From NCBI GenBank assembly GCA_964443625.1, contig CAYUDM010000009.1, forward strand, positions 10,005-74,004: a DNA stretch of 64,000 nucleotides, in the 5' to 3' direction. This document shows, piece after piece, positions 4,236 to 32,057 of this stretch. The position numbers and the translations under genes were made by a program. The number at the start of each line of letters is the position of its first letter. Position 1 is the first letter of the stretch. This DNA comes from an uncultured Smithella sp. (GTDB lineage: Bacteria; Desulfobacterota; Syntrophia; Syntrophales; Smithellaceae). Under the pieces are notes generated by a model that made no database searches, was not told where the DNA came from, and saw only the letters and a list, made by a program, of their open reading frames with translations.

Positions 4236-4631
4236 AAGGTCCTCCTGAAATCTTTATCTTTTTTCCCCGATGCAGGGTTTTTATTCAGCGGCGATAAATT
4301 GGCAATGAAATTGAGGTTGTCAAGTAAGGTGTGCTCCCCAAACGCGCCTTTTGGGCACGCCTCTTGCTTTCTCTATGTTTTTGTTCTGTCAGAATAATTT
4401 CTGGAAAACAGAATCAGCTGTGCTATACTGCCAAACATCCAGCGGTTATCATATTCTTCCGTATCACCCCTCTCAAACGCCGGCGTCTCTCAGAATATCC
4501 GTAAACCCGTTTACCGGTCAACCAGTCCTCACTCATTGAGTATGGGACTACAGCCGATTCATTAACCAGCGTCGATGGGCGTGCCCTTATTCGATGTGCC
4601 AAAGGCATTTTTGCAGAAAGGAGGAAAGAAG

Positions 4632-6224
4632 ATGGACCATTTTCTCAACAGGCGGCGTTTTCGAATGGTGGTCCCAGCCTATCCGGCTTTTAATATCTAT
4701 TCCCGAATCGCCAGCCGGACAACGTCCCTGGGGCCGCTTTCCATTGCCACCGTGGTCAGCCGGATGCCCGGTTGGGATGTTGAAGTGATTGACGAGAACA
4801 ACTACCGCAAATTCGGCCCACGCGACCGCGATGGCCGGCCCGACCACAGGACCCTGCAGGAGATCCGTCACGCCGACGTTGTCGGCTTTTACGGAGGGCT
4901 GAGCTCGACCATTCCGAGACTCCATGATCTGGCCCGCCTGTATAAGCTTAGCGGCGCCGTCACCATTGCCGGGGGCCAGCACTTTGTGGCTGACAATATC
5001 CGCGAGGCGCTGGAAAACGATATCGATTATATCGTGGTCGGGGAGGGGGATCACACCATCCGGGAGCTTCTTGAGGCCATTCAGACGCGAGGAATACCGG
5101 CAAATGTTGACGGGATTGCTTATCTCAAAGAGGGAGAACTGATCCAAACCCCGCAGCGCCCGCCGATTACCGATTTCAATGCGCTGCCTCTTCCCGACTT
5201 TACGCTTCTGAGATACGCCAGAGTCAGAATCTATCCGATAGGCTGGATTCGCGGCTGCGGAATGAACTGTGAGTTCTGCACCGTGAAAGGCAAACCGCGC
5301 GCCTCCGCTCCGGAACGCGTGGTGGAACAGATGGCGTCGCTTCTGGAAGCTCACAACGCCCGTCATTTCTTTATTGTGGACGACCTGTTCGGGCACGGCC
5401 GGACCGAGACGCTGAAACTCTGCCGCATGCTGGCCGAGTATCAAAAGGCCGTGGGCATCAAGCTGGACATCACGGTTCAGACCCGGCTCGACCGCGGTCG
5501 GGACAACGAGCTTTTGGTCGCCATGCGCTCAGCCGGCGTGAACACCGTCTGTATCGGTTTTGAATCGCCCATCGCCGAGGAATTGACGGCCATGGATAAA
5601 AGAATCAAGCCCGATGAGATGCTGGCGATGACCTGGCTTTTTCACAAGGCCGGCTTTCTCGTGCACGGCATGTTCATCTTCGGGTATCCGATGCCCGAGG
5701 GCGTCACCCTGAAAATGCCGCTTGCCGAGCGCGTCAAGCGCTTCAGGCAATTCATCCGCAAAAGCAGGCTCGACACGCTCCAGGTGCTCCTGCCCGTTCC
5801 CTTGCCCGGCACCGCGCTCACCGAGAGGCTTGCCGACTCCGGCCGGATTTTCCCCCGCACGGATATCGGATGGGAATATTATGATGGAAATTTTCCGGTG
5901 TTCATGCCCGATGAACCGCTGACCCCCGAAGACATGCAGCAGGCTGTGCGCAAACTCATGAAACGCTTTTATCGTTTCCGGTATCTGTTTGCCATCGGGC
6001 TCAACGTGTTGATCTTTCCCGCCATGATGCTGACAGCATGGAACATCCGCTTCGGCTGGCGCAGGTGGTATCGCCTCTGGCGTAACGATCTCATTCGATT
6101 CGGAGGCTGGGTTATCCTGCGGCGCTGGGCGTCTCTTGTCCGCCGGGGCACCTTCTTTGAGAAGCTGACCCGAGCCAAAGAGCATCTGGGCTTTGGCTCC
6201 AGAACATCGCTGTCCGCTCGGTGA
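4632..6224 (+). CDS. B12-binding-domain radical SAM protein
   Basis: CGMNCEFC (CX3CX2C) follows an N-terminal Rossmann-like B12-binding region. I chose the start at MDHF because of the AGGAGGAAAG SD; the ORF track opens at 4575. Confidence 0.8.
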   Translation: MDHFLNRRRFRMVVPAYPAFNIYSRIASRTTSLGPLSIATVVSRMPGWDVEVIDENNYRKFGPRDRDGRPDHRTLQEIRHADVVGFYGGLSSTIPRLHDLARLYKLSGAVTIAGGQHFVADNIREALENDIDYIVVGEGDHTIRELLEAIQTRGIPANVDGIAYLKEGELIQTPQRPPITDFNALPLPDFTLLRYARVRIYPIGWIRGCGMNCEFCTVKGKPRASAPERVVEQMASLLEAHNARHFFIVDDLFGHGRTETLKLCRMLAEYQKAVGIKLDITVQTRLDRGRDNELLVAMRSAGVNTVCIGFESPIAEELTAMDKRIKPDEMLAMTWLFHKAGFLVHGMFIFGYPMPEGVTLKMPLAERVKRFRQFIRKSRLDTLQVLLPVPLPGTALTERLADSGRIFPRTDIGWEYYDGNFPVFMPDEPLTPEDMQQAVRKLMKRFYRFRYLFAIGLNVLIFPAMMLTAWNIRFGWRRWYRLWRNDLIRFGGWVILRRWASLVRRGTFFEKLTRAKEHLGFGSRTSLSAR

Positions 6225-6280
6225 CGGTTTGAATCACATTTGGATCTTTCGCGAAGACTCACGAGCGAAACACCCTTAGA

Positions 6281-6383
6281 TTTATAAATGAACAGATCCA
6301 GGAGGCACAGGAAAATACCATTCAATCGTGATTCATGAGAGCTAAGACCCTTTTTTCGAAATCGTAGAACCAGCCATACGCAT
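6281..6383. repeat. Repeat family copy C (left-end fragment only)
   Basis: Aligns to 11571-11680 and 8662-8755: ..cacaggaaa..ttcaatcgtgattcatgaga..aagaccctttttt.gaa.tc.tagaa...gccatacgcat. Confidence 0.7.
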
Positions 6384-6396
6384 TTCGGACCTTGTT

Positions 6397-7566
6397 TTAA
6401 CAAGGCGGACCGTACCAGTCTTTGAACACCTGGTAGGGCACTATGCGCGGTCTGGCAAAAGGTCTGGCGACACCGGACAGGCTTTCTCCAACAATCGCAA
6501 TGTCCTCCATACGGCGCGGCTTCATCCCGGCCTTCCAGGCCCACTGGAAGGTGTCGATTTCATCCAGCATAAAGCCCATCACACGGGCGGCAACCATGTC
6601 CGCAGCCAGGGCATTGGTTCCTGCGATGATCAAATTCATTTTAACGGGCTTGCCGCCTTGCGCGGTGGAAGGACCATTTCCTTCCATGGCCATGGTGGCA
6701 TCGATGACATTGAGGCCGATTTTATTGGCCTTAACCATATCAATGATGGCCGTGGACGTTCCGGTCGGTTCCAGTTCACTGGCCCTGCTGTGCACGGCCG
6801 ACCGGACCGATCCGTAAACCAGTCCGGGGTAGGCGCCGATGCCGACATTTTTCATCGCCAGCGTCACGCCGGCCAGCGTGTGCGTCTTCATCATCGGCAT
6901 CGAACAAACCATATCGGCATGGTAAAGCGCTTCGTGAAGATGGATTTCCTTAAAGACAAAATTATCCGGAATGCCCAGCTTCATCATTTTTCCCACATGC
7001 AGGTTGACCAGGGGAACCTCTATTCTGCGTGACAGGTCGCAATATCCCAGCGTGCGAAACACGTCGTCCTGAATCGCCTGGAGGTCCTGATAGCCTTTGG
7101 CGCTGCATACATTGCCTTTTACAAACACCTTCACATTGCGCCAGGACGCCACACTGGCCTCGCCGATAGAAACGTTTTTCCCCGCTTTTTTCATCAGACA
7201 GGCCAGAGCTTCGACCACAAGAGGATTGGTCGTATCGGCAGGCGACAGGTTCAGCAAGTTCGGCTTGAGCAAGATATTTTCTTTCCCCGCGGCAACCTGA
7301 TGGATCCCTCCGATCAGATCAATCGCGCGGGTTACGGCGTAATTGATGCCTTTGGCGTCGCTCCATTTTTCATTCACCTTCACGATACTGACAATCGGTT
7401 TTGGGTCTGAATAATACAGAGGGTAAGGCGTATAGGAAGCGGGGGCAATTTCAAATTCCTGCTCACGGACGTCGCCCGACGGCATGGCATGCCTTGAGCA
7501 TCCCAGCATAGTGCTCAGGCACAACAACGAACCCTGCTTTAAAAGTTGCCGTCTGGTCAGATGCAT
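6397..7566 (-). CDS. DUF362-like protein with Tat/lipoprotein-type signal
   Basis: N-terminus MHLTRRQLLKQGSLLCLSTMLGC (RR motif plus lipobox-like Cys). The DUF362 call is from memory of the overall sequence. Confidence 0.55.
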   Translation of the reverse strand: MHLTRRQLLKQGSLLCLSTMLGCSRHAMPSGDVREQEFEIAPASYTPYPLYYSDPKPIVSIVKVNEKWSDAKGINYAVTRAIDLIGGIHQVAAGKENILLKPNLLNLSPADTTNPLVVEALACLMKKAGKNVSIGEASVASWRNVKVFVKGNVCSAKGYQDLQAIQDDVFRTLGYCDLSRRIEVPLVNLHVGKMMKLGIPDNFVFKEIHLHEALYHADMVCSMPMMKTHTLAGVTLAMKNVGIGAYPGLVYGSVRSAVHSRASELEPTGTSTAIIDMVKANKIGLNVIDATMAMEGNGPSTAQGGKPVKMNLIIAGTNALAADMVAARVMGFMLDEIDTFQWAWKAGMKPRRMEDIAIVGESLSGVARPFARPRIVPYQVFKDWYGPPC

Positions 7567-7574
7567 GCGTGCGC

Positions 7575-8372
7575 CTATCGGAAAGCCCCCAGGCCGAAAG
7601 ATAGGGGAAAGGTGTTTTTAAAGTAATAGGCTAAAACCATTTCCGACGGCTTCAAGCCGAAGACCTTCGCCAGCCGCTCCGAGTGCGCCCCTGCGGCCTG
7701 AGGGTCGCACAGAAGACGCGCGCTTCCGGTTCTGACGATGATGCGATCCGGATAGATTCGCGATACCTCCAGCAGATTGGCTTTGCCGCCGAAGTCGGGC
7801 TCATAGACTTTGCCGTCCAATAAATTAAAATTCGGCAAGCCCCGAAGTTTTTCAAACCATTGCGATTCGGACACAGAAACATCGTTTCGCTCTTTGGCGG
7901 CAAGCTCAAGGGTCATAACGGTTTGGTTGTTGAGCTTCAGTATCCCGGTATAGGTGGACGGTTCGCGGACAAGGTCGATATCGCCCATGATTTTCGGAAA
8001 ACCGAGGTATTTGATCCCTTTAACCCGGGCATCATCCGACGTCACCGGCATGGTCAGACAATGCCATCCCGTTTTGCCTTTGTATTTCGCCAGAAGCGAA
8101 ACCGCCACTTCGCGGTAGGGTGTTGTGCGCTTGTCCATTTTATAGTAGTCCATCACAAAGGCCATCATCAACGGTTCATCCGGCATGTCAAAGATGCGAG
8201 GGAGCAAATCGCGATAGGCGGCGGTGTCCTGAGTTTTATAAAACACAAACAGGCCGTCAAATTCGTGATACGTGTAAGGACGCTCCAGATGGACGCATCC
8301 GGCCGTAAGCAACAGGTAAGCGCATCCGAAAATCAGCAGAAGCGGGTGAACAACTTTTTTTAAATTCATCAT
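7575..8372 (-). CDS. Putative lipoprotein, possibly acetoacetate-decarboxylase-like fold
   Basis: I trimmed the start to MMNLKKVVHPLLLIFGCAYLLLTAGC (signal peptide plus lipobox). The upstream 74 codons of the ORF look non-coding. The family guess is weak. Confidence 0.4.
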   Translation of the reverse strand: MMNLKKVVHPLLLIFGCAYLLLTAGCVHLERPYTYHEFDGLFVFYKTQDTAAYRDLLPRIFDMPDEPLMMAFVMDYYKMDKRTTPYREVAVSLLAKYKGKTGWHCLTMPVTSDDARVKGIKYLGFPKIMGDIDLVREPSTYTGILKLNNQTVMTLELAAKERNDVSVSESQWFEKLRGLPNFNLLDGKVYEPDFGGKANLLEVSRIYPDRIIVRTGSARLLCDPQAAGAHSERLAKVFGLKPSEMVLAYYFKNTFPLSFGLGAFR

Positions 8373-8661
8373 GACATCCCACAACCTCTTTTTGTTTTGG
8401 CATCTTGTTTGTGTAGCAACAATCGCGCGATGACGATACGCACATCTGTCCTCAAGTGGAGACACAGCCAATGAGCCATCAAAGGAAGCTGAATGAACGC
8501 AAGAGGGACTATGCGTAATTTTCATTTTGAAATCAAGATATTTATCTATAGGATGCCGAGCACATCGATCGCACCTGACCACCGATGGCCGCAAAGTTTT
8601 TGGGCATATTCAACGTACAAGCGCTCCACAAGCAGGGGCCCCAACGCTCTTAGATTGTTAT

Positions 8662-8970
8662 GTTAACAGATTCGATGTATACAGGAAAACGTCCGGCCAT
8701 CGTGATCCCGGAGACGTAAAATCTTTTTTGAACCCATAAAAGGCCATGCGCATGATACATCCGAAGAAAAATTATATCGGACATCCCTCTAAAAGACCGG
8801 CGGACGAACCTCTTATTTCCTTTTCACATCTTTCTTTCCCGACGGACGCAGACAGGATCGACGACACCGAATCGGTTTTCGGCTTTCCCGAAACGAAAGA
8901 ATCACAACTGTATGAAACAGGCTATCTGGCGAAAATATTTCTGAGATGCTGAGTAACCGCTTTGCGCCAC
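8662..8970. repeat. Repeat family copy A (full length, about 300 bp)
   Basis: About 75-80% identical by eye to 11571-11896, with no indels across the embedded 68-codon ORF. Shares the CATGCGCATG palindrome and a CCGAATCGG(Y)TTTCGG hairpin. Confidence 0.8.
8746..8952 (+). CDS. Conserved 68-codon ORF inside repeat copy A (coding status uncertain)
   Basis: It has the same length, start and stop position as the ORF at 11669-11875. Several differences between the two are third-position synonymous changes. No convincing SD. Confidence 0.3.
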   Translation: MRMIHPKKNYIGHPSKRPADEPLISFSHLSFPTDADRIDDTESVFGFPETKESQLYETGYLAKIFLRC

Positions 8971-9103
8971 GAACTGAAAAGTCAAGGATACTGAAAATAG
9001 ATCTAAAATATAACTGTCATTATATCCATAATTACGGGAATATGCAGACATTGCTTAATAATTTATGGGTGTCTCCATTGCACATTGCATTTCACCCAAG
9101 TTA

Positions 9104-10177
9104 TCATGATACCCTTTTCCCGCTGACAAATACGGCAAGTGATTCCACAAGCGTCTTTAACTCAGAGGATTGTGCAGACAACTCTTCCGCAGTGGACGCG
9201 GATTCCTCGGCGCCGGCTGCCGTCTTTTGTGTGACCATATCCATTTCCGCCACAGCTTTGCCGATCTGACCGATGCCCTGTGCCTGCTCATTGGACGCTG
9301 CGGAGATCTCGTCAATCAGAAGACCTATCTTGTTGGAAATTTCCACATTCTCCTTAAATCCTTCTTGCGTCTGCAGGGTGAGCTCGTTGCTGTTCTTAAC
9401 TGTAACAATCGTTTTTTCAATCAGACTGGATGTATTCCTTGCCGCTTCCGCCGCCCGCATCGCCAGATTCCGAACCTCGTCTGCCACTACGGCAAAGCCT
9501 GCACCGGCTTCTCCTGCGCGGGCTGCTTCGACGGCGGCATTGAGCGCCAGCAGATTCGTCTGGAAAGCAATCTCATCTATCGTTTTAATGATCTTGCCTG
9601 TTTCTTCACTGGAGCGGGTCACTTCCTGAATCGCCTCCACCATGCGATTCATCTGATCACCCACTTTATCTACAACCTGTCTGGCTTCAGCTGTCAGCGC
9701 TTTCGCCTGAGCGGCGTTATCTGCATTGTGTTTCGTCATGGAGGACATTTCCTCCAAAGACGCAGACGTTTCCTCAAGCGCGGAGGCCTATTCCGATGAG
9801 TTTTCGGCCAGATGCTGACCCGAATTTGCGATCACTGCGGAGGCGCTTGATACTTCATCCGCTGCCAGATTAACATTTTCGAGCGATTTGATGATATTTT
9901 TTTCAAAATACATCCCCGTGTATATAAAGCAACCAAGGATGAGTGCAACATCGATCAGGCTTGTAACCGCAAAAATAAACGGATTTGATGCCATATTAGT
10001 TCCTGCGACCCAATATATCATGATTAATACCGCAGCTATCGCCGGAAAAATCCTGAGCCACATTTTATAGATCATGCCTTTTCCAAAAGCTTTTAAAAGA
10101 ACAAAAGAAATAAGCGCGGCGCCGGAAATAACCGCGACAGATACCAAAATAAACTGCTGATTGAAAGTAAGAGTCAT
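9104..10177 (-). pseudogene. Methyl-accepting chemotaxis protein interrupted by one in-frame TAG (9788-9790)
   Basis: ORFs 9788-10177 (TM region) and 9104-9757 (signalling domain [38 protein letters not shown]) are in the same frame. Read-through gives ..[22 protein letters not shown], so the TAG sits where MCPs normally have Q. Confidence 0.75.
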
Positions 10178-10286
10178 AACATTGCCCCCCGCTTATAATA
10201 TTGGACGATACCCCGTCTTCAGCATGTATCGGCTGCCTGCCAGTACGACTGTAATATTATTTACATAACTTTAGAATGCCAAGTGG

Positions 10287-10562
10287 GACGCTGTTTCCTT
10301 ATGCTTCCTGAAAACTAAGACCATTTTTGAAGTCATAGAAACATTCAAAACCATGACACACCAGAAGATAAAACATATTCAGAGATATAATCAAAATAAA
10401 CGTTGGTTAAACAAAGGCAGCTGTCCAGACGCTGACGGGATTGGCCGCACCGGCATAGGAGATATCCAGCTTGGAACAAACGACAGACTCAAAAGTTCGG
10501 GAAGAAACCGGATGCCGCCCTCAATGAGATTTTGATCACCGGCAATAGCCTGGAAAAATGCA
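10287..10562. repeat. Repeat family copy D (degenerate)
   Basis: The left about 90 bp match clearly (cctgaaaactaagaccatttttgaagtcatagaaac...ccatga). The remainder shows only patchy similarity (ccagacgctgacggga; aatagcctggaaaaatg). A 60-codon ORF starts at the homologous ATG (10353). Confidence 0.5.
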
Positions 10563-10657
10563 CGCCCCGGCACAAGCGAAAAAGCGCAATCGGCAGCCAT
10601 CGCGGGGTCTGCAGATGAAACCCCTGATGTCGAATTCTTACCCGCTTTGAGTCACCC

Positions 10658-11446
10658 TTATCTTTTTGCCCTCCAGGCGGGTTCGTTGTGCATGCGGCCG
10701 CCGTCAATCACAATCGTCTCGCCCGTCACATAACTTCCCGCCTCCGATGCCAGAAAAACCACGATACCGCGCAGTTCCTCGGGCTCGCCGAGTCGCAGCA
10801 TGGGGATTTGGGCGATCGCTTTGGCGTTGACCTCCGGGTTCTTCCAAAGCGCTTCGCTTAAGCGCGTTTTAATGATGCCCGGCGCAATGGCGTTGACACG
10901 GATATGGTATTGCCCCCATTCTTTGGCCATGGTCTGGGTAAGCATGACCACGGCCGCCTTGGAGGCGCAATACACGCCCAGCTCGCCCGCACGGAGACCG
11001 CCGATGGAAGACGTGTTGATGATCGATCCGCCGCCTTGTTCTTTCATGATTCTGGCGGCCATCTGGCTTAAGACGAAGATACTCTTAAAATTGACATTCA
11101 TCGTGATGTCGAAGGTTTTTTCATCCTGGTCCATCATCGGTCCGAAATAGGGATTGGTGCCGGCATTGTTGACCAGAACATCCAACCGACCGAATTCCTT
11201 CATGACCTGATCAATGAGCGCCCGGCATTCATCCATTTTGCCGACATGCGCCGCAATGGCTTTTCCCCGGACGCCCTTTGCCGATACTTCCGCGGCGACG
11301 ACTTCGAGATCGGCGATTTTACGGCTGCTGACCACCACATGCGCACCCGCATCCGCCATGGCCAAAGCCGCGGCCCGTCCGATGCCCCTGCTGCCGCCTG
11401 TAACCACGGCGACTTTTCCTTCGAGAGAGAACTGGGATAGATCCAT
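10658..11446 (-). CDS. SDR-family oxidoreductase (FabG-like)
   Basis: Contains TGGSRGIGRA (the NAD(P)-binding TGxxxGxG motif), NNAG, and the YCASKAA catalytic YxxxK motif. Confidence 0.85.
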   Translation of the reverse strand: MDLSQFSLEGKVAVVTGGSRGIGRAAALAMADAGAHVVVSSRKIADLEVVAAEVSAKGVRGKAIAAHVGKMDECRALIDQVMKEFGRLDVLVNNAGTNPYFGPMMDQDEKTFDITMNVNFKSIFVLSQMAARIMKEQGGGSIINTSSIGGLRAGELGVYCASKAAVVMLTQTMAKEWGQYHIRVNAIAPGIIKTRLSEALWKNPEVNAKAIAQIPMLRLGEPEELRGIVVFLASEAGSYVTGETIVIDGGRMHNEPAWRAKR

Positions 11447-11570
11447 GATGTTTGTTCCTTTCTCCAGGCAATATTTTTTTCATGACGGATTTTGTATAGC
11501 ATACACGGACAGGATGGTCAAAAAACAGCGGCGCGAGGTGAATGACTAAGGAGCCCAAGAAGAGCGGGCT

Positions 11571-11896
11571 TAAATTATTAAGTGAATAGATCAGAAGCAC
11601 ACAGGAAAGACGCTCTTCAATCGTGATTCCTGAGAATTTAAACCCTTTTTGAAGTCATAGAAACGGCCATGCGCATGAATAAACCGAAGATTAAAAATCT
11701 TGGACCATCCCACAAAATGCCGGCAGAAGAACTTCTTATTTCCTTTTCGCACCCCTCCTTCCCGACGGACGCGGACAGGAATGAAGACACCGAATCGGCT
11801 TTCGGCTATCCTGCATCCGGTGAAACGGAACTCTACGAAACAGGCTATCTGGCGAAAATATTTTTTCGATGTTGAGTAACCGCCTTGCGCCGCAAG
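11571..11896. repeat. Repeat family copy B (full length)
   Basis: See copy A. This copy lies directly upstream (minus-strand sense) of the SDR gene. Confidence 0.8.
11669..11875 (+). CDS. Conserved 68-codon ORF inside repeat copy B (coding status uncertain)
   Basis: The product MRMNKPKIKNLGPSHKMPAEELLISFSHPSFPTDADRNEDTESAFGYPASGETELYETGYLAKIFFRC is paralogous to the 8746-8952 product. Confidence 0.3.
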   Translation: MRMNKPKIKNLGPSHKMPAEELLISFSHPSFPTDADRNEDTESAFGYPASGETELYETGYLAKIFFRC

Positions 11897-12348
11897 CTCT
11901 ATGCTATTCATTTTTTTAAGAGATGTAAAAAAGCTCTCATAATCTTGCATGCCGAATCAGCCAAACATCACCCAACGGGCATGTTTCCCGAACATACCTC
12001 TGGATTTTTCCCGTCTATCTTCTTCCACATTCGTGACACCATAAGTCAATTAGAGAAAAAATCAAGAAAGGGTAAAACTCTTCGCCGTCATGCTCTTCCC
12101 GCATTTTTCGTTTCGCTTCTCCAGGCGATTCGTCAAGCATTATCTCCCTTCGGGAAAATACGTAAAATCAGAAAGATGAAATGCCTCCGATAACTGTTTA
12201 AGATAAATGTCAGTAATGTCGATTAGAGTCTATATTTCGGCAGGTCATGTTTGCTGTGTTGACCTGAAACGGGTTATTCGGATTCAAGTTTGAACCCAAT
12301 CTTAGGTCAGGGTGAATTCGCTACGAGTAAAAATAGGGGAATTCAAAT

Positions 12349-13635
12349 ATGATCAATGTTGAATTATTTAGGGAAGTTATCTCAATGTCATTCAATCGGT
12401 TCCGACATCAAAAAAGTGTATTCATAATCCTCCTGTTCGGCTCGCTCATGTGTCTGGCGCTGATTTTAAGCTGCAGCAACGGAAATCATCGAGACTCGGC
12501 CAACTGTCTGAATTTTGTGAACTCCTTTGAAGGAGGAGCTTTGTATCTTACCCCCAATTCAATTTATCCTGTTTTGAACCTGTCCGGCAACTGGTATGAG
12601 ATGGGGCGCCAGTACGGTCACCTGCTGCAACACCAGCTGAGGGATTTTCACGATGACATCAGCTCCGATTTGACAGTCAGAGGGATGTCTTATGCCGCCC
12701 AACTGGAATCCGCCAGAGAATTCTACCAGCTCTACTCGCCTCATATTCACCAAATCATGGACGGTATGACGCAGACCTCCGGATTGAGCAAAGATGAAGT
12801 CCTTGTTCTCAACGCAGGAATGATGCTTCTGAGCGGAGTGATTCTTCAGGGCAGCCCGCCAAGTGTTTGCAGCGGCATTGCGGCATGGGACACATATACG
12901 CCGGACAATACTCTGGTGTTCGGCAGAAACTGGGATATCAGCCGCGCGGAGATGGTCCGATACATGAAGTATCTTGGCGTCGCGGTGTTTCATCCACGCG
13001 ACGGATATGCAGTGGCCAACATACATCCCATCGGGAATTTGTACCTCGAAACCGGAATGAATGAAACCGGTCTTTTCCTCGAGCTCAACAACGGCGAACA
13101 GTCCGACAATGGATTTAATCCTTCGGCAGAAGATACCGCCTCAGTTCTTTTCAGAGTCCTTGCCTCCAGCGCAACCATCGATGACGCATATGCCATGCTT
13201 GAAGCCACCCCGGCAGACCTGGCCTACATTATCCAGCTGGCTGATGCCTCGCGTGCTGTATCCATAGAGCGAGCCACATTCGGTTGCCGCCTCAGAGAGG
13301 GAAAGTATTTAGGACTTCTTGCCGCGACCAACAATTTCGTGCCGCCGTATCCATCCGAATGGGATGGGCTGGTCAATCCGCCACCGGATGCCACCCAGGA
13401 TCCCAGACTGGAAAATCTCTGGAACTTGGCTAATTCGCCGGCATTTAAAGGCAACCTCGATGTTTACGGCATGATGCGGCTCATGGAGATTGATATTCAA
13501 CAAGGCGGCGCTGTGCATGACGGGACCGTGGTTCAAGTGATTGCCTCGCCTGAAAACAAAACTATCTGGCTGCGTGGGTTGGACTATTCAGATTGGGAAA
13601 AAGTGGATCTGGGCTTTCTTTTCAGCCGGCATTGA
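12349..13635 (+). CDS. Peptidase C45 / acyl-CoA:6-aminopenicillanic-acid acyltransferase-like Ntn hydrolase, secreted or lipoprotein
   Basis: Signal peptide/lipobox (LALILSCSNG), a GNWYEMGRQYGHLL block, and an internal CSGIAAW that could supply the nucleophile Cys. AGGGGA SD before 12349; an alternative start is at 12385. Confidence 0.55.
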   Translation: MINVELFREVISMSFNRFRHQKSVFIILLFGSLMCLALILSCSNGNHRDSANCLNFVNSFEGGALYLTPNSIYPVLNLSGNWYEMGRQYGHLLQHQLRDFHDDISSDLTVRGMSYAAQLESAREFYQLYSPHIHQIMDGMTQTSGLSKDEVLVLNAGMMLLSGVILQGSPPSVCSGIAAWDTYTPDNTLVFGRNWDISRAEMVRYMKYLGVAVFHPRDGYAVANIHPIGNLYLETGMNETGLFLELNNGEQSDNGFNPSAEDTASVLFRVLASSATIDDAYAMLEATPADLAYIIQLADASRAVSIERATFGCRLREGKYLGLLAATNNFVPPYPSEWDGLVNPPPDATQDPRLENLWNLANSPAFKGNLDVYGMMRLMEIDIQQGGAVHDGTVVQVIASPENKTIWLRGLDYSDWEKVDLGFLFSRH

Positions 13636-15691: not shown

Positions 15692-17020
15692 GAGACTGTA
15701 AATAAATCTGTGTAAATGGAATTTTTCTCACGTCGCCGCCAAATCGAAGCGGCCCTCGTACATAACAGCCAGCTGGGAGATTGTCAAAGCCCAGTTAGCC
15801 AACGGCATCGTCCATTTTTTCATAACGTCTTGAATCGCCAAAAATAATATTTTTGTTAACGCTTCATCATTCGGGAAAACGGATCTGTTTTTTGTTACCT
15901 TTCGGAGTTGCCGGTGAAGACCCTCCAAAGCATTGGTCGTATAAATGATTTTCCGGATGTGTTCCGGGTATTTAAAAAAGGTGGCGACATGCGTCCAGTG
16001 GTTTTTCCACGGGTTCACTGCCAGAGGATATTTCTGGCCCCACTTGGCCGTCAGCTTATCCAACTCATGCGCAGCCTTGTCTTCGCTGGGGGATTTATAA
16101 ATGGCCTTAAGATCGGCAATAAATTCTTTCTGATATTTTGAGCCCACATATTTGAGCGAATTGCGGATCAAATGCACGATGCACAGCTGAATCTCTGTTT
16201 TCGGAAAAGCGCTGTTAATGGCCGCCGGAAATCCTTTTAAACCGTCAACGCAGGCAATCAAAATGTCTTCAACACCCCTGTTCCTCAATTCGTTCATGAT
16301 TCCCAGCCAATAATGGGCGCCTTCGTTTTCCCCGACCCAGATGCCTAAAACATCCTTGTGCCCTTTTAAATCGATCCCCAGGCAGGTATAAGCCGCCTTA
16401 TTGATCACTTTGCCTTCCTGGCGAACAGGGTAATGGATGGCGTCAAAGAAAACGATCGCATAAACGGCCGACAGCGGCCGGGCCTGCCATTCTGCCGCCA
16501 GGGACATGACTTTATCGGTTATGTTGGAAATCGTGGTCGGCGAAATGTCTACGCCGTAAATATCTTTGATGTGTTCCTGAATGTCGCGAACGGTCATGCC
16601 TTTGGCGTACATCGATATGATCTTCTCATCAAATTCACTGATGTCGCTCTGGCGTTTCTTAACGATGGCGGGCTCAAAAGTCCCGTTCCGATCACGGGGC
16701 GTCTCTATTTTGACTTCACCAAAATCGGACCGGACGGTTTTGGCTGTTTTGCCGTTACGGTTGTTTCCGCTATTGTTTCCGTCTGTTGAATGTTTCTCGT
16801 AGCCTAAATGATCTGTCAGCTCTGCCTCCAGGATCTGTTCCGTCATCTCTTTCAGCATTCGCTTTAACAAACCGTTTTTCCCGGAAATATCTTCCAGGGT
16901 TTTACACTGGCTTAACGCCTCCTCTACATCAAACGTCAGCTTCATACTAAATCCTCCTGTCTATTCTGGTTTTATTCCTACCCTAAATAAAACCATTTAC
17001 ACAGTTAGATTTACACTCCC
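15692..17020 (-). mobile_element. IS256-family insertion sequence, apparently intact
   Basis: Imperfect terminal inverted repeats: GACTGTAAATAAATCTGTGTAAATGG on the left, and GAGTGTAAATCTAACTGTGTAAATGG on the right (reverse complement). Flanked by GAAAAATC / GAAAAAATC, a near-identical 8-9 bp target duplication. Confidence 0.85.
15728..16945 (-). CDS. IS256-family (Mutator-type) transposase
   Basis: 405 aa. Typical blocks include DHLGYEKH, YAKGMTVRDI, VFFDAIHYPVR, VDGLKGF, CIVHLIRNS and TTNALEGLHRQLRK. Confidence 0.9.
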   Translation of the reverse strand: MKLTFDVEEALSQCKTLEDISGKNGLLKRMLKEMTEQILEAELTDHLGYEKHSTDGNNSGNNRNGKTAKTVRSDFGEVKIETPRDRNGTFEPAIVKKRQSDISEFDEKIISMYAKGMTVRDIQEHIKDIYGVDISPTTISNITDKVMSLAAEWQARPLSAVYAIVFFDAIHYPVRQEGKVINKAAYTCLGIDLKGHKDVLGIWVGENEGAHYWLGIMNELRNRGVEDILIACVDGLKGFPAAINSAFPKTEIQLCIVHLIRNSLKYVGSKYQKEFIADLKAIYKSPSEDKAAHELDKLTAKWGQKYPLAVNPWKNHWTHVATFFKYPEHIRKIIYTTNALEGLHRQLRKVTKNRSVFPNDEALTKILFLAIQDVMKKWTMPLANWALTISQLAVMYEGRFDLAAT

Positions 17021-30768: not shown

Positions 30769-31566
30769 TTATAAGAGCTTTTTATTTTTGAGGGCATGGA
30801 CCACCAGAAACGTGTTCCATTCATGATCTTCGCCGCCCCATGAACCGTCCTTCTTCTGCACGTTCACCAAAAGGGGAAAGGCCTTCTCCCATTGGAGGTG
30901 CGCCGGTTCGGAATCCAAATGCGCCAGGGCATTGAGGGTCAAAAAAAATGGAATCGGCGAGGGCCATATCCCTGAATCTTTTTGCTGCTTGGCCAAATCA
31001 TTAACCAGATTAAACGTGGCTGGATCTTTCGCGTAAACGGGATGAACGATCAATGCGCGCAAAATATTACTTCTATCCGGCCAGATATCTTCCTCCCGCT
31101 CCTGTGCGGCCAACCATTGGATAAGTAACTGATAGTGCGTCTCGACCCGATCTTCCTTTTCCATTTGGAATACGGAAGCCAGAAAAAGCGTTGCGCACAT
31201 CAGGGTCAATGGCTGCCTGGCCGCCACAAAAGGCAATCCCTGAAAATCATCGGATGCCCACTGTTCAGAATACAGCCCCGACAGATCTTTCGTTAAGGTC
31301 TGATTGATCAGCCATTCCAATCCCTTATGGATATCAGGCGTTCTTTCCCGGTAGGTGAGATGCAAACCAAACAAGCGTCTGATCGTTTCAAGAGGCGATT
31401 GAAACCAGGAGCCATCAGCCGACTGTTTTTCCATCAGTGAAAGCACCGTATGGTCGAAATCCCTTTTCCAGTCGGGATTATCGGATTCCCCAAGCCATTT
31501 TTTTCGCGCATACAACCCGGCCGACGAGGAACTGGCGTGAAATATTTCAAAAGCATTATACTTCAT
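30769..31566 (-). CDS. Prenyltransferase/terpene-cyclase-like repeat protein
   Basis: Repeated QxxDGSW-type motifs (EKQSADGSWF, QQKDSGIWP, QKKDGSWGG). I trimmed the start to MKYNAF, because the longer ORF (to 31779) runs through a tRNA remnant. Confidence 0.45.
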   Translation of the reverse strand: MKYNAFEIFHASSSSAGLYARKKWLGESDNPDWKRDFDHTVLSLMEKQSADGSWFQSPLETIRRLFGLHLTYRERTPDIHKGLEWLINQTLTKDLSGLYSEQWASDDFQGLPFVAARQPLTLMCATLFLASVFQMEKEDRVETHYQLLIQWLAAQEREEDIWPDRSNILRALIVHPVYAKDPATFNLVNDLAKQQKDSGIWPSPIPFFLTLNALAHLDSEPAHLQWEKAFPLLVNVQKKDGSWGGEDHEWNTFLVVHALKNKKLL

Positions 31567-31582
31567 TTCTGATTCCTTGCAA

Positions 31583-31659
31583 AAAATGCCCGCTTCTTTC
31601 GAAACGGGCATTTTGTTTGGCTCCACAGCGCGGACTCGAACCACGGACATGCTGGTTAA
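31583..31659 (-). repeat. Direct repeat 1: duplicated tRNA-Asn 3' half (anticodon loop to CCA) plus terminator hairpin
   Basis: 77 bp, with 1 mismatch against 31947-32023. The tRNA-derived part is 31618-31659. The ATGCCCG/CGGGCAT hairpin is followed by T6 on the minus strand. Confidence 0.85.
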
Positions 31660-31940
31660 TCCCGCCTTGGGCGGGACTCTATCGACTGAGCCTCCACCAG
31701 ATAACGAATAACACCTCTGCCCTTGATTCGCTTTTCCAGTATCATCGCCTCGGAACGACTTGAAACCTTTTGTGTCCATATCACTTTCCAGGGCCCTTTA
31801 AAACGCTTGGTTGTTTTAGAACCCAGGTAATCGGAATTGTTGTGTTCGGAGAATCGGCGATCCAAATTATCCGTATGACCAATGTAATGACGACCGCTTG
31901 CCACACTCTGTAAAATATAGACCCAATAAGTCATGTCCAT
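31656..31940 (-). CDS. GIY-YIG nuclease-family protein (small, stand-alone)
   Basis: YWVYILQSVASGRHYIGHTDNLDRRFSEHN matches the GIY-YIG motifs. The last about 16 codons and the TAA stop are encoded by tRNA-like sequence. Confidence 0.8.
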   Translation of the reverse strand: MDMTYWVYILQSVASGRHYIGHTDNLDRRFSEHNNSDYLGSKTTKRFKGPWKVIWTQKVSSRSEAMILEKRIKGRGVIRYLVEAQSIESRPRRD

Positions 31941-31949
31941 TTCACGAAA

Positions 31950-31975
31950 ATGCCCGCTTCTTTCGAAACGGGCAT
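31950..31975 (-). terminator. Hairpin immediately 3' of tRNA-Asn
   Basis: ATGCCCG-N12-CGGGCAT. The minus strand continues TTTCGTG, a weaker U-tract than in the duplicate copy. Confidence 0.5.
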
Positions 31976-31981
31976 TTTGTT

Positions 31982-32057
31982 TGGCTCCCCAGCGCGGACT
32001 CGAACCACGGACATGCTGGTTAACAGCCAGCCGCTCTACCGACTGAGCTACTGGGGA
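31982..32057 (-). tRNA. tRNA-Asn (anticodon GTT), CCA encoded
   Basis: Hand-folded sequence: TCCCCAG TA GCTC AGTCGGTA GAGC G GCTGG CTGTTAA CCAGC ATGTC CGTGG TTCGAGT CCGCG CTGGGGA G CCA. Confidence 0.9.

Follow-up and report, generated by a model that had tools for sequence, protein, structure and literature searches.

The closest described counterparts of the locus analyzed here are lineage-restricted families of small proteins (70 amino acids or fewer) annotated as "hypothetical" (e.g., PKN18474.1), with which it shares a free-standing gene of approximately 67 codons, conserved length and motifs, the lack of a domain model, a narrow taxonomic range, and occasional local paralogues. The locus is a group of 4 repeats (c1 to c4) in the genome of an uncultured Smithella sp. 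(contig CAYUDM010000009.1), of which we analyzed a stretch of 64,000 nt (64 kb, hereafter the window). It differs from other small-protein families in that local multiplication has involved both the gene and a lineage-specific module upstream of it, which we call m1, with 2 intact copies, 1 pseudogene, and 1 stub as the result. Other known systems show more partial likenesses. Miniature inverted-repeat transposable elements (MITEs) and repetitive extragenic palindromic-like repeats also occur as short (100-330 nt) co-oriented intergenic copies, but the window unit has no terminal inverted repeats and no visible target duplications, few copies of it are known, and the protein encoded in its interior is under selection. 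Integron cassettes resemble the locus in that co-oriented units are split by a repeated element and their order is permuted in a relative. However, integron attC sites are imperfect palindromes of 57-141 nt, whereas the window repeats are 300 bp long, contain a gene and lack palindromic architecture. In addition, no integron integrase or tyrosine recombinase was present among the open reading frames (ORFs) scanned between 0.3 and 25 kb, and the junction found here is explained instead by homologous recombination. Multi-copy precursors of ribosomally synthesized and post-translationally modified peptides (RiPPs) are likewise short, disordered peptides that occur as paralogues and keep a conserved segment at the C-terminus, and the window has a radical SAM gene close to the repeats, but no maturation genes are conserved beside members of the window family in other genomes. 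Our analysis indicates that the repeat copies are very probably local paralogues of one small gene unit, rather than a mobile element or a structured RNA.

Repeat copies and the gene they carry

The limits of the copies, refined by nhmmer and blastn, are 6275-6383 (c1), 8649-8976 (c2), 10270-10562 (c3), and 11569-11898 (c4), all on the plus strand, which is essentially where an earlier note made from the letters of this DNA had placed 4 repeats in the same orientation. A repeat search of the window returned a 238-nt pair (8738-8975 and 11661-11898, 78% identity) and a 93-nt pair (10287-10379 and 11609-11701, 71%). When independently assembled metagenome contigs carrying c4 were used as blastn queries against the window, c2 matched c4 with 77.2% identity over 324 nt (E 2e-64), within the 75-80% that the earlier note had estimated by eye, and c1 with 76.6% over 111 nt (E 7e-14). 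The c3 copy matched through a 41-nt core alone (85%, E 2e-7), with weaker blocks showing in the alignment. A full unit consists of m1 (approximately 105 nt), the gene (201 nt), and a tail of approximately 25 nt. The nhmmer profile of m1 had exactly 4 matches in the window (6275-6381, 8649-8751, 10270-10349, and 11569-11674), while the profile of the ORF part and the protein-family hidden Markov model (HMM), the latter used in a six-frame hmmsearch, each found only c2 and c4; no further copy was detected in the window by these nhmmer and six-frame searches. Copy c1 comprises only the stretch of approximately 105 nt located ahead of the ORF in the other copies, and its right junction is orthologous to that of a solo m1 in a sister genome described below. 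The degenerate copy c3 does keep an ORF from the homologous ATG, as had been claimed (10353-10535, 60 amino acids), in which all family motifs are gone and whose product gave no family HMM match at E<=1. Two ORFs on the minus strand, of 119 amino acids over c4 and 49 amino acids over c2, were considered as candidates and rejected, as they are not conserved between copies.

To judge whether the plus-strand ORF is a gene, we compared c2 and c4 with full-length ORFs having the same stop in 2 Syntrophaceae metagenome-assembled genomes, at the loci L006 (JAHDKI010000006, 60% amino acid identity) and L007 (UBA2280, 52%). The ratio of nonsynonymous to synonymous substitution rates (dN/dS, Nei-Gojobori) was 0.32-0.48 in the ORF frame for all 6 pairs formed by these 4 divergent sequences, and 0.63-2.36 in the other 2 frames, so that the hint of selection on the protein voiced in the earlier note now has a codon-aware basis. 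Between c2 and c4, which align without gaps over ORFs of 68 codons with homologous starts and stops (8746-8952 and 11669-11875), differences fall at codon positions 1, 2, and 3 in the ratio 11/12/25. Exactly 33 codons differ, 10 of them synonymously, the very numbers that had been counted roughly before, and this synonymous excess is significant (binomial P=0.005). The same periodicity was seen in 10 family genes from different genomes, where pairwise differences at the 3 codon positions average 0.39/0.29/0.54 and 10 of the 13 invariant residues are written with more than 1 codon; spellings of the motif LYETGYL, for instance, include CTC TAC GAA ACA GGC TAT CTG and TTG TAT GAA ACG GGT TAT TTG. 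Purifying selection confined to the ORF frame, length-conserved homologues in independent genomes, and a family with an identical C-terminal end together strongly support that the ORF is a genuine protein gene under purifying selection.

The start of this gene is not the first ATG of the 68-codon ORFs. All but one of the family proteins (P0020, which is N-terminally short) start at the Met equivalent to codon 3, and codon 1 of the window ORFs corresponds to TTG in L006 and to GCG in L007. We therefore place the start at the third codon (8752 in c2 and 11675 in c4), which gives proteins of 66 amino acids each. The product of c2 includes the tryptic peptide ESQLYETGYLAK. This also bears on 2 sequence features that had been taken as signs of a non-coding function. 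The palindrome CATGCGCATG is indeed present, and is made up of the 2 ATGs that form codons 1 and 3. Copies c2 and c4 likewise contain the CCGAATCGGYTTTCGG hairpin, which encodes T-E-S-(A/V)-F-G and is not kept in distant family members.

The protein family and its genomic contexts

The first search with a single protein sequence matched only the 2 window paralogues, giving the protein the appearance of an orphan. Homologues surfaced later, in a scan with a back-translated pattern (one genome per species) and then in a profile search. The profile search yielded 23 proteins of 53-74 amino acids, 20 of which have 64-71 (the others 53, 61, and 74), and JGI metagenome contigs contained near-identical copies of the L006-type gene. 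An exhaustive HMMER search of 1.84 billion representatives retrieved 14 small proteins of 66-102 amino acids, 13 of them new and one (P0007) already known from the profile search. In total, the family comprises approximately 35 sequence clusters of 53-102 amino acids, mostly 64-71, and is confined to Syntrophaceae/Syntrophales-like deltaproteobacteria. Sources that name these proteins at all call them "hypothetical protein", as for PKN18474.1 of Deltaproteobacteria bacterium HGW-Deltaproteobacteria-6. Searches of Pfam, NCBIfam, and PADLOC and a PDB profile search with the small protein gave no match, PHROGs returned only noise (E>=0.09), and a literature search for the motif YETGYL produced a single irrelevant match.

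Members share the pattern SFSHL...YGFP..EE.LYETGYL.KIFLRC-COOH together with an acidic stretch. Invariant positions are S, F, and H of SFSHL, E, L, E, T, G, and L of EE.LYETGYL, the following F, and the terminal C. The sequence FL(R/K)C stands immediately before the stop in all 23 proteins of the profile search (as FFRC in c4), and 3 of the 13 further representatives have FM(R/K)C at their end. The N-terminus of the chain is basic and its middle acidic; overall the protein is hydrophilic and acidic and has no hydrophobic membrane-spanning stretch, the criterion applied for a type I toxin-antitoxin system. AlphaFold2, run on the alignment of 23 sequences, returned a model with a mean pLDDT of 58 and a pTM of 0.14 whose only secondary structure is 2 short helices (residues 50-57 and 61-65). 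The protein is predicted to be cytoplasmic and largely disordered, with a short amphipathic helix at the C-terminus. It probably acts by binding a partner through SFSHL and this helix, and the invariant His and terminal Cys may serve as metal or redox ligands.

Each family gene fetched from another genome is the sole copy in its locus, and usually has no co-oriented neighbour near enough to form an operon. An ArsC/Spx-family gene lies on the opposite strand within approximately 1.3 kb downstream in 4 contexts represented by 5 loci (L007, L014, L015, L016, and L021). A KASIII-like gene pair is present in the 3 of these contexts outside L007 and also in L017. GGDEF or histidine-kinase and response-regulator genes occur near the family gene in L014 and L013, and a fragment encoding the signalling part of a methyl-accepting chemotaxis protein (MCP), 61% identical to the MCP of the window, in L011 and L012. 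No neighbour is common to all family loci. The MCP fragment in L011 (6711-7241, plus strand, HGW-Deltaproteobacteria-6) is N-terminally truncated, and proximity of the small gene to an MCP gene is a recurrent observation. A 104-aa ORF (L007 9676-9990, plus strand) with a strong Shine-Dalgarno sequence and Cys and His residues precedes the small gene of UBA2280 by 14 nt. This ORF has no Pfam match, and the ORF lists of the window and L006 showed no evident counterpart; it may form an operon with the small gene in that genome.

The RNA runs found were 4 sludge metatranscriptomes, which match the L006-type species and not the window strain. When their contigs were placed on the window at 90%, the repeats remained uncovered. 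On L006, RNA contigs of 253, 519, and 213 nt (9959-10211 in X25, 9681-10197 in X27, and 9820-10031, respectively) cover the small gene at a depth similar to that over the neighbouring genes, a hint that the L006-type gene is transcribed.

The upstream module, rearrangement, and rival explanations

The m1 module is directly upstream of the gene and co-oriented with it in c2, c3, and c4, and also in L022, a locus from a third related species (hydrocarbon metagenome) in which HtpG, m1, and the gene are adjacent. Since m1 and the gene occur together in L022 as well, their link is ancestral in this clade. The m1 copies have a sharp left boundary. In our reading of the alignments, they carry a weak motif, TTCAAT-16-TAA(A/G)A(C/T), and after it a conserved CTTTTTGAAGYCATARAA stretch that ends approximately 15 nt before the ATG, a layout that would fit a promoter and a short 5' untranslated region (5'UTR). 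From its position, m1 probably carries the promoter and 5'UTR of the gene. An in-frame mini-ORF, [A/G]TG...TAA, of 4-5 codons (M-I-P-E-x-stop) is present in the 7 known m1 copies at 11623-11652 and homologous positions, with the TAA lost in c4. Because no Shine-Dalgarno sequence lies at a proper distance from it, this conserved TAA may instead be part of a -10 element. Metagenome contigs also contain one m1-like junction without a counterpart in the window (...ATGATTCCTGAGAAGTAAGCCCCTT, m1 core, ...TGATTTTCGGGCAC). At least one extra m1-like copy thus occurs in runs X1-X3, on contigs over window positions 11646-11682; it is flanked by AAGTTATGATTCCTGAGAAGTAAGCCCCTT before and AAATGATTTTCGGGCACAAATGC... 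after, and appears to be truncated just past the start codon.

Comparison with the sister species places the copies in a history of duplication and rearrangement. In the window the order is HtpG - radical SAM - [c1, solo m1] - DUF362 - ADC - [c2] - MCP - [c3] - SDR - [c4], where ADC is an acetoacetate decarboxylase-family gene and SDR a short-chain dehydrogenase/reductase gene. The L006-type order is HtpG - DUF4124 - gene - SDR - [solo m1] - DUF362 - ADC - defence genes, and it is the same in the 5 further L006-type loci long enough to show it; the solo m1 between SDR and DUF362 was found in 6 such loci from different samples (L006 and L023-L027). In L006 this solo m1 is a mosaic. Its left part and left flank match the c4/SDR side, and from the core CTTTTTGAAGTCATA...CCATGCGC onward it follows the c1/DUF362 side including the flank. 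Aligned in this way, the 2 gene orders read as circular permutations of each other joined inside m1, which suggests that the copies served as substrates for homologous recombination. The window copy nearest to the L006 and L022 orthologues is c2 (79-81% nucleotide identity), and the synonymous divergence (dS) between c2 and the L006 gene is 0.35, compared with 0.64 between c2 and c4. Since c2 is closer to the L006 gene than to c4, the c2/c4 duplication predates the split from L006. Similarly, the 3'-most approximately 30 nt of c3 are still recognisable beside SDR in L006, and given this shared 3' end, c3 is an old pseudogene whose decay predates the species split. The units would have arisen by duplication of m1, gene, and tail, and later homologous recombination between copies would have permuted the SDR, DUF362-ADC, and MCP order between the sister species.

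From approximately 4.3 kb on, the window has no blastn match in the 20-kb L006 locus except the rearranged SDR, DUF362-ADC, and small-gene segments. The DNA past ADC varies among L006-type loci, which carry either a KAP-family NTPase or a Gabija-like pair of OLD nuclease and UvrD helicase (L006 14227-16083; L023-L025 10060-12201), and this ADC-distal side is a variable defence island.

Several observations weigh against reading the repeats as copies of one small protein gene with its own upstream region. Neither gene has a strong Shine-Dalgarno sequence, as the earlier note had already remarked: only a weak AAAGG (c2) or AACGG (c4) lies 8 nt upstream of the corrected start. In c4, codon 27 (11753-11755) is CCC and puts Pro at the near-invariant Leu of SFSHL, so this window allele may be slightly degenerate or drifting; in run X3 a C>T change at 11754 gives CTC (Leu). 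The low confidence of the AlphaFold2 model makes the structural statement weak, and the RNA matches come from the sister species and from unstranded Logan contigs that could include DNA. As for m1, a simple scan found no sigma-70 consensus promoter inside it. It is absent upstream of distant family members (L007, L011, L013, and L014), and the upstream region of the L006 gene itself is also unrelated to it. Conversely, m1 stands without the gene at c1, in L006, and at the further junction in the metagenome contigs, and because it persists in this way it may have a role of its own.

Taken to its conclusion, such a role would make m1 a regulatory or recombination module that is functional by itself and shuffles the neighbouring minus-strand units like cassettes. 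The solo copies (c1, the 6 L006-type loci, and the extra metagenome junction), the sharp left boundary common to the copies, the permutation junction inside m1, the 41-nt m1 core as the best-conserved part of c3, and the mini-ORF shared by the 7 known copies are all consistent with this possibility. We nevertheless consider it quite unlikely: ordinary homologous recombination between 75%-identical repeats explains the rearrangement, only about 5-7 copies are known, m1 has neither an inverted-repeat architecture nor RNA structure, and 4 DNA metagenomes contained no structural variants or joints between copies. The recombinase screen, which covered part of the window, found no integrase among the ORFs scanned around the region (the IS256-family transposase is at 15.7-16.9 kb). 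Two bolder readings are also unlikely: that the family, with its invariant His and Cys, represents a previously undescribed class of small regulators dependent on a thiol or a metal, or else of modified peptides, specific to syntrophic deltaproteobacteria; and that m1 is a portable element promoting cassette-like reshuffling of the neighbouring gene units. That the small proteins are multi-copy RiPP-like precursors processed by the nearby B12-binding radical SAM enzyme would be in line with several paralogous short disordered peptides in which the C-terminal region is conserved and the terminal Cys invariant, and with the position of the radical SAM gene 50 nt from c1. However, the copy beside that gene is the gene-less stub, the L006 and L022 loci lack the radical SAM gene, and no maturase, peptidase, or transporter is conserved beside family members in 8 other contexts, which leaves this explanation with very little probability.

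The earlier note had offered 3 further alternatives to a protein gene, none of which fared well. If the unit were a structured RNA, or belonged to the minus-strand genes as their 5' leader or a 3' element, and the ORF were incidental, one would point to the local hairpins in c2 and c4 such as CCGAATCGGYTTTCGG, to the position of 3 of the 4 copies 93-274 nt upstream of minus-strand start codons, and to the sister-species RNA contigs that span m1 between DUF362 and SDR. However, Rfam at the gathering threshold on the whole window found just a tRNA elsewhere, and in evalue mode on 6100-12400 the only match was 20 nt long with an E of 0.96, as expected by chance. RNAalifold predicted 0 pairs over 10 family genes and m1 consensus energies of -0.16 and -0.46 kcal/mol on the 2 strands, with at most one compensatory pair, so the covariation sought on both strands is essentially missing. 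Folding z-scores of -0.63 to +1.60 are no better than those of shuffled sequence, and the substitutions are codon-periodic. A leader is further contradicted by c1, which had been thought to lie upstream of a minus-strand gene like the other copies but is located downstream of DUF362, facing the convergent radical SAM gene, and by the variable distances from m1 to the start codons (93, 123, and 274 nt). Moreover, SDR has a promoter-like site of its own, TTGACC-17-TATACA at 11521-11493 (minus strand), which falls between m1 and the SDR start codon, outside m1, and which L006 keeps as TTGACC-17-TATGCA. Altogether, an RNA or leader function is very improbable. Extremely unlikely, finally, is a MITE-like or IS-derived non-autonomous mobile element, although several co-oriented intergenic copies with similar ends and an IS256-family transposase 4 kb away would suit one. 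Copies c2 and c4 share no terminal inverted repeats (their inverted pairs differ and none is terminal), no target-site duplication is visible at the boundaries of c1, c2, and c4, and the unit has no similarity to the transposase region. Only 4 copies exist in the 64 kb and none in the fetched related loci outside orthologous positions. The interior is a conserved protein gene that is single-copy in the loci of other genomes, several of them with ArsC-family and KASIII neighbours. The evidence thus favours a paralogue family of one small gene unit.

Flanking genes and meaning of the finding

The features of the region are collected in Table 1. The copies do separate 3 minus-strand gene units containing DUF362, MCP, and SDR, as described in the earlier note, but the gene that it called a lipoprotein encodes the ADC-family protein, and the MCP gene contains an in-frame TAG. 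This TAG stands where MCPs have Gln. The window strain and ENA contig L001 carry the nonsense allele, while strains from bioreactor metagenomes (runs X1 and X3) have G at 9790 and hence CAG in MCP. Given this nonsense allele, MCP is probably a pseudogene in the window strain.

Table 1. Coordinates of the repeat copies and flanking genes in the window
Feature	Position	Strand	Evidence or remark
Radical SAM gene, B12-binding	4575-6224		Pfam; 50 nt from c1
c1, solo m1 without gene, abuts DUF362 3' end	6275-6383	+	nhmmer E 6e-25; blastn 76.6% to c4
Unit 1: DUF362 (6397-7566) and ADC family (acetoacetate decarboxylase, PF06314; 7575-8375)	6397-8375	-	Pfam
c2 m1, putative promoter and 5'UTR (from position)	8649-8751	+	nhmmer E 3e-26; alignments
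c2 small-protein gene, 66 aa from conserved ATG (mechanical ORF start 8746)	8752-8952	+	family HMM E 3e-29; dN/dS 0.32-0.48
c2 tail past stop codon, approximately 25 nt, GTAACCGCYTTGCGCC..., common to c2, c4, and L006	8953-8976	+	
Unit 2: short MCP with in-frame TAG (9788-9790, minus strand)	9104-10177	-	ORF list; Pfam
c3 m1, partly decayed; core 10302-10342 85% identical to c4	10270-10352	+	nhmmer E 1e-16
c3 decayed gene body (pseudogene)	10353-10562	+	several indels; SFSHL, YGFP, and LYETGYL lost
Unit 3: SDR	10658-11446	-	Pfam
c4 m1	11569-11674	+	nhmmer E 3e-28
c4 small-protein gene, 66 aa (mechanical ORF start 11669)	11675-11875	+	family HMM E 9e-27; family alignment
c4 conserved tail past stop codon	11876-11898	+	

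Two observations concern other parts of the window. The transposase gene mentioned above, of the IS256/Mutator family (15728-16945, minus strand; PF00872, E 1e-117), is situated 4 kb past the repeats. A 77-nt direct repeat (31583-31659 and 31947-32023, 99% identity) copies the 3' part of tRNA-Asn (31982-32057, minus strand) together with an adjacent hairpin, and may be an att-like integration scar; the 364 nt between the starts of its 2 copies fall in the 5' part of an ORF of 336 aa (30769-31779), for which Pfam gave no match.

With these results, an unexplained repeat becomes annotatable as 2 intact copies, a pseudogene, and a stub of a gene for a conserved 66-aa protein, which has no name in any source searched and no match in the domain libraries. 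The analysis reveals no new type of element; what it describes is a lineage-restricted small-protein family, with the rearrangement as a side observation. The comparison of the sister species does provide a clean small case of gene order permuted by recombination between paralogous repeats. In digesters and hydrocarbon-rich sediments, methanogenic degradation is driven by Syntrophaceae-like bacteria, and a small protein that is specific to this clade, conserved, and apparently transcribed would be reasonable to pursue by metaproteomics and functional work.

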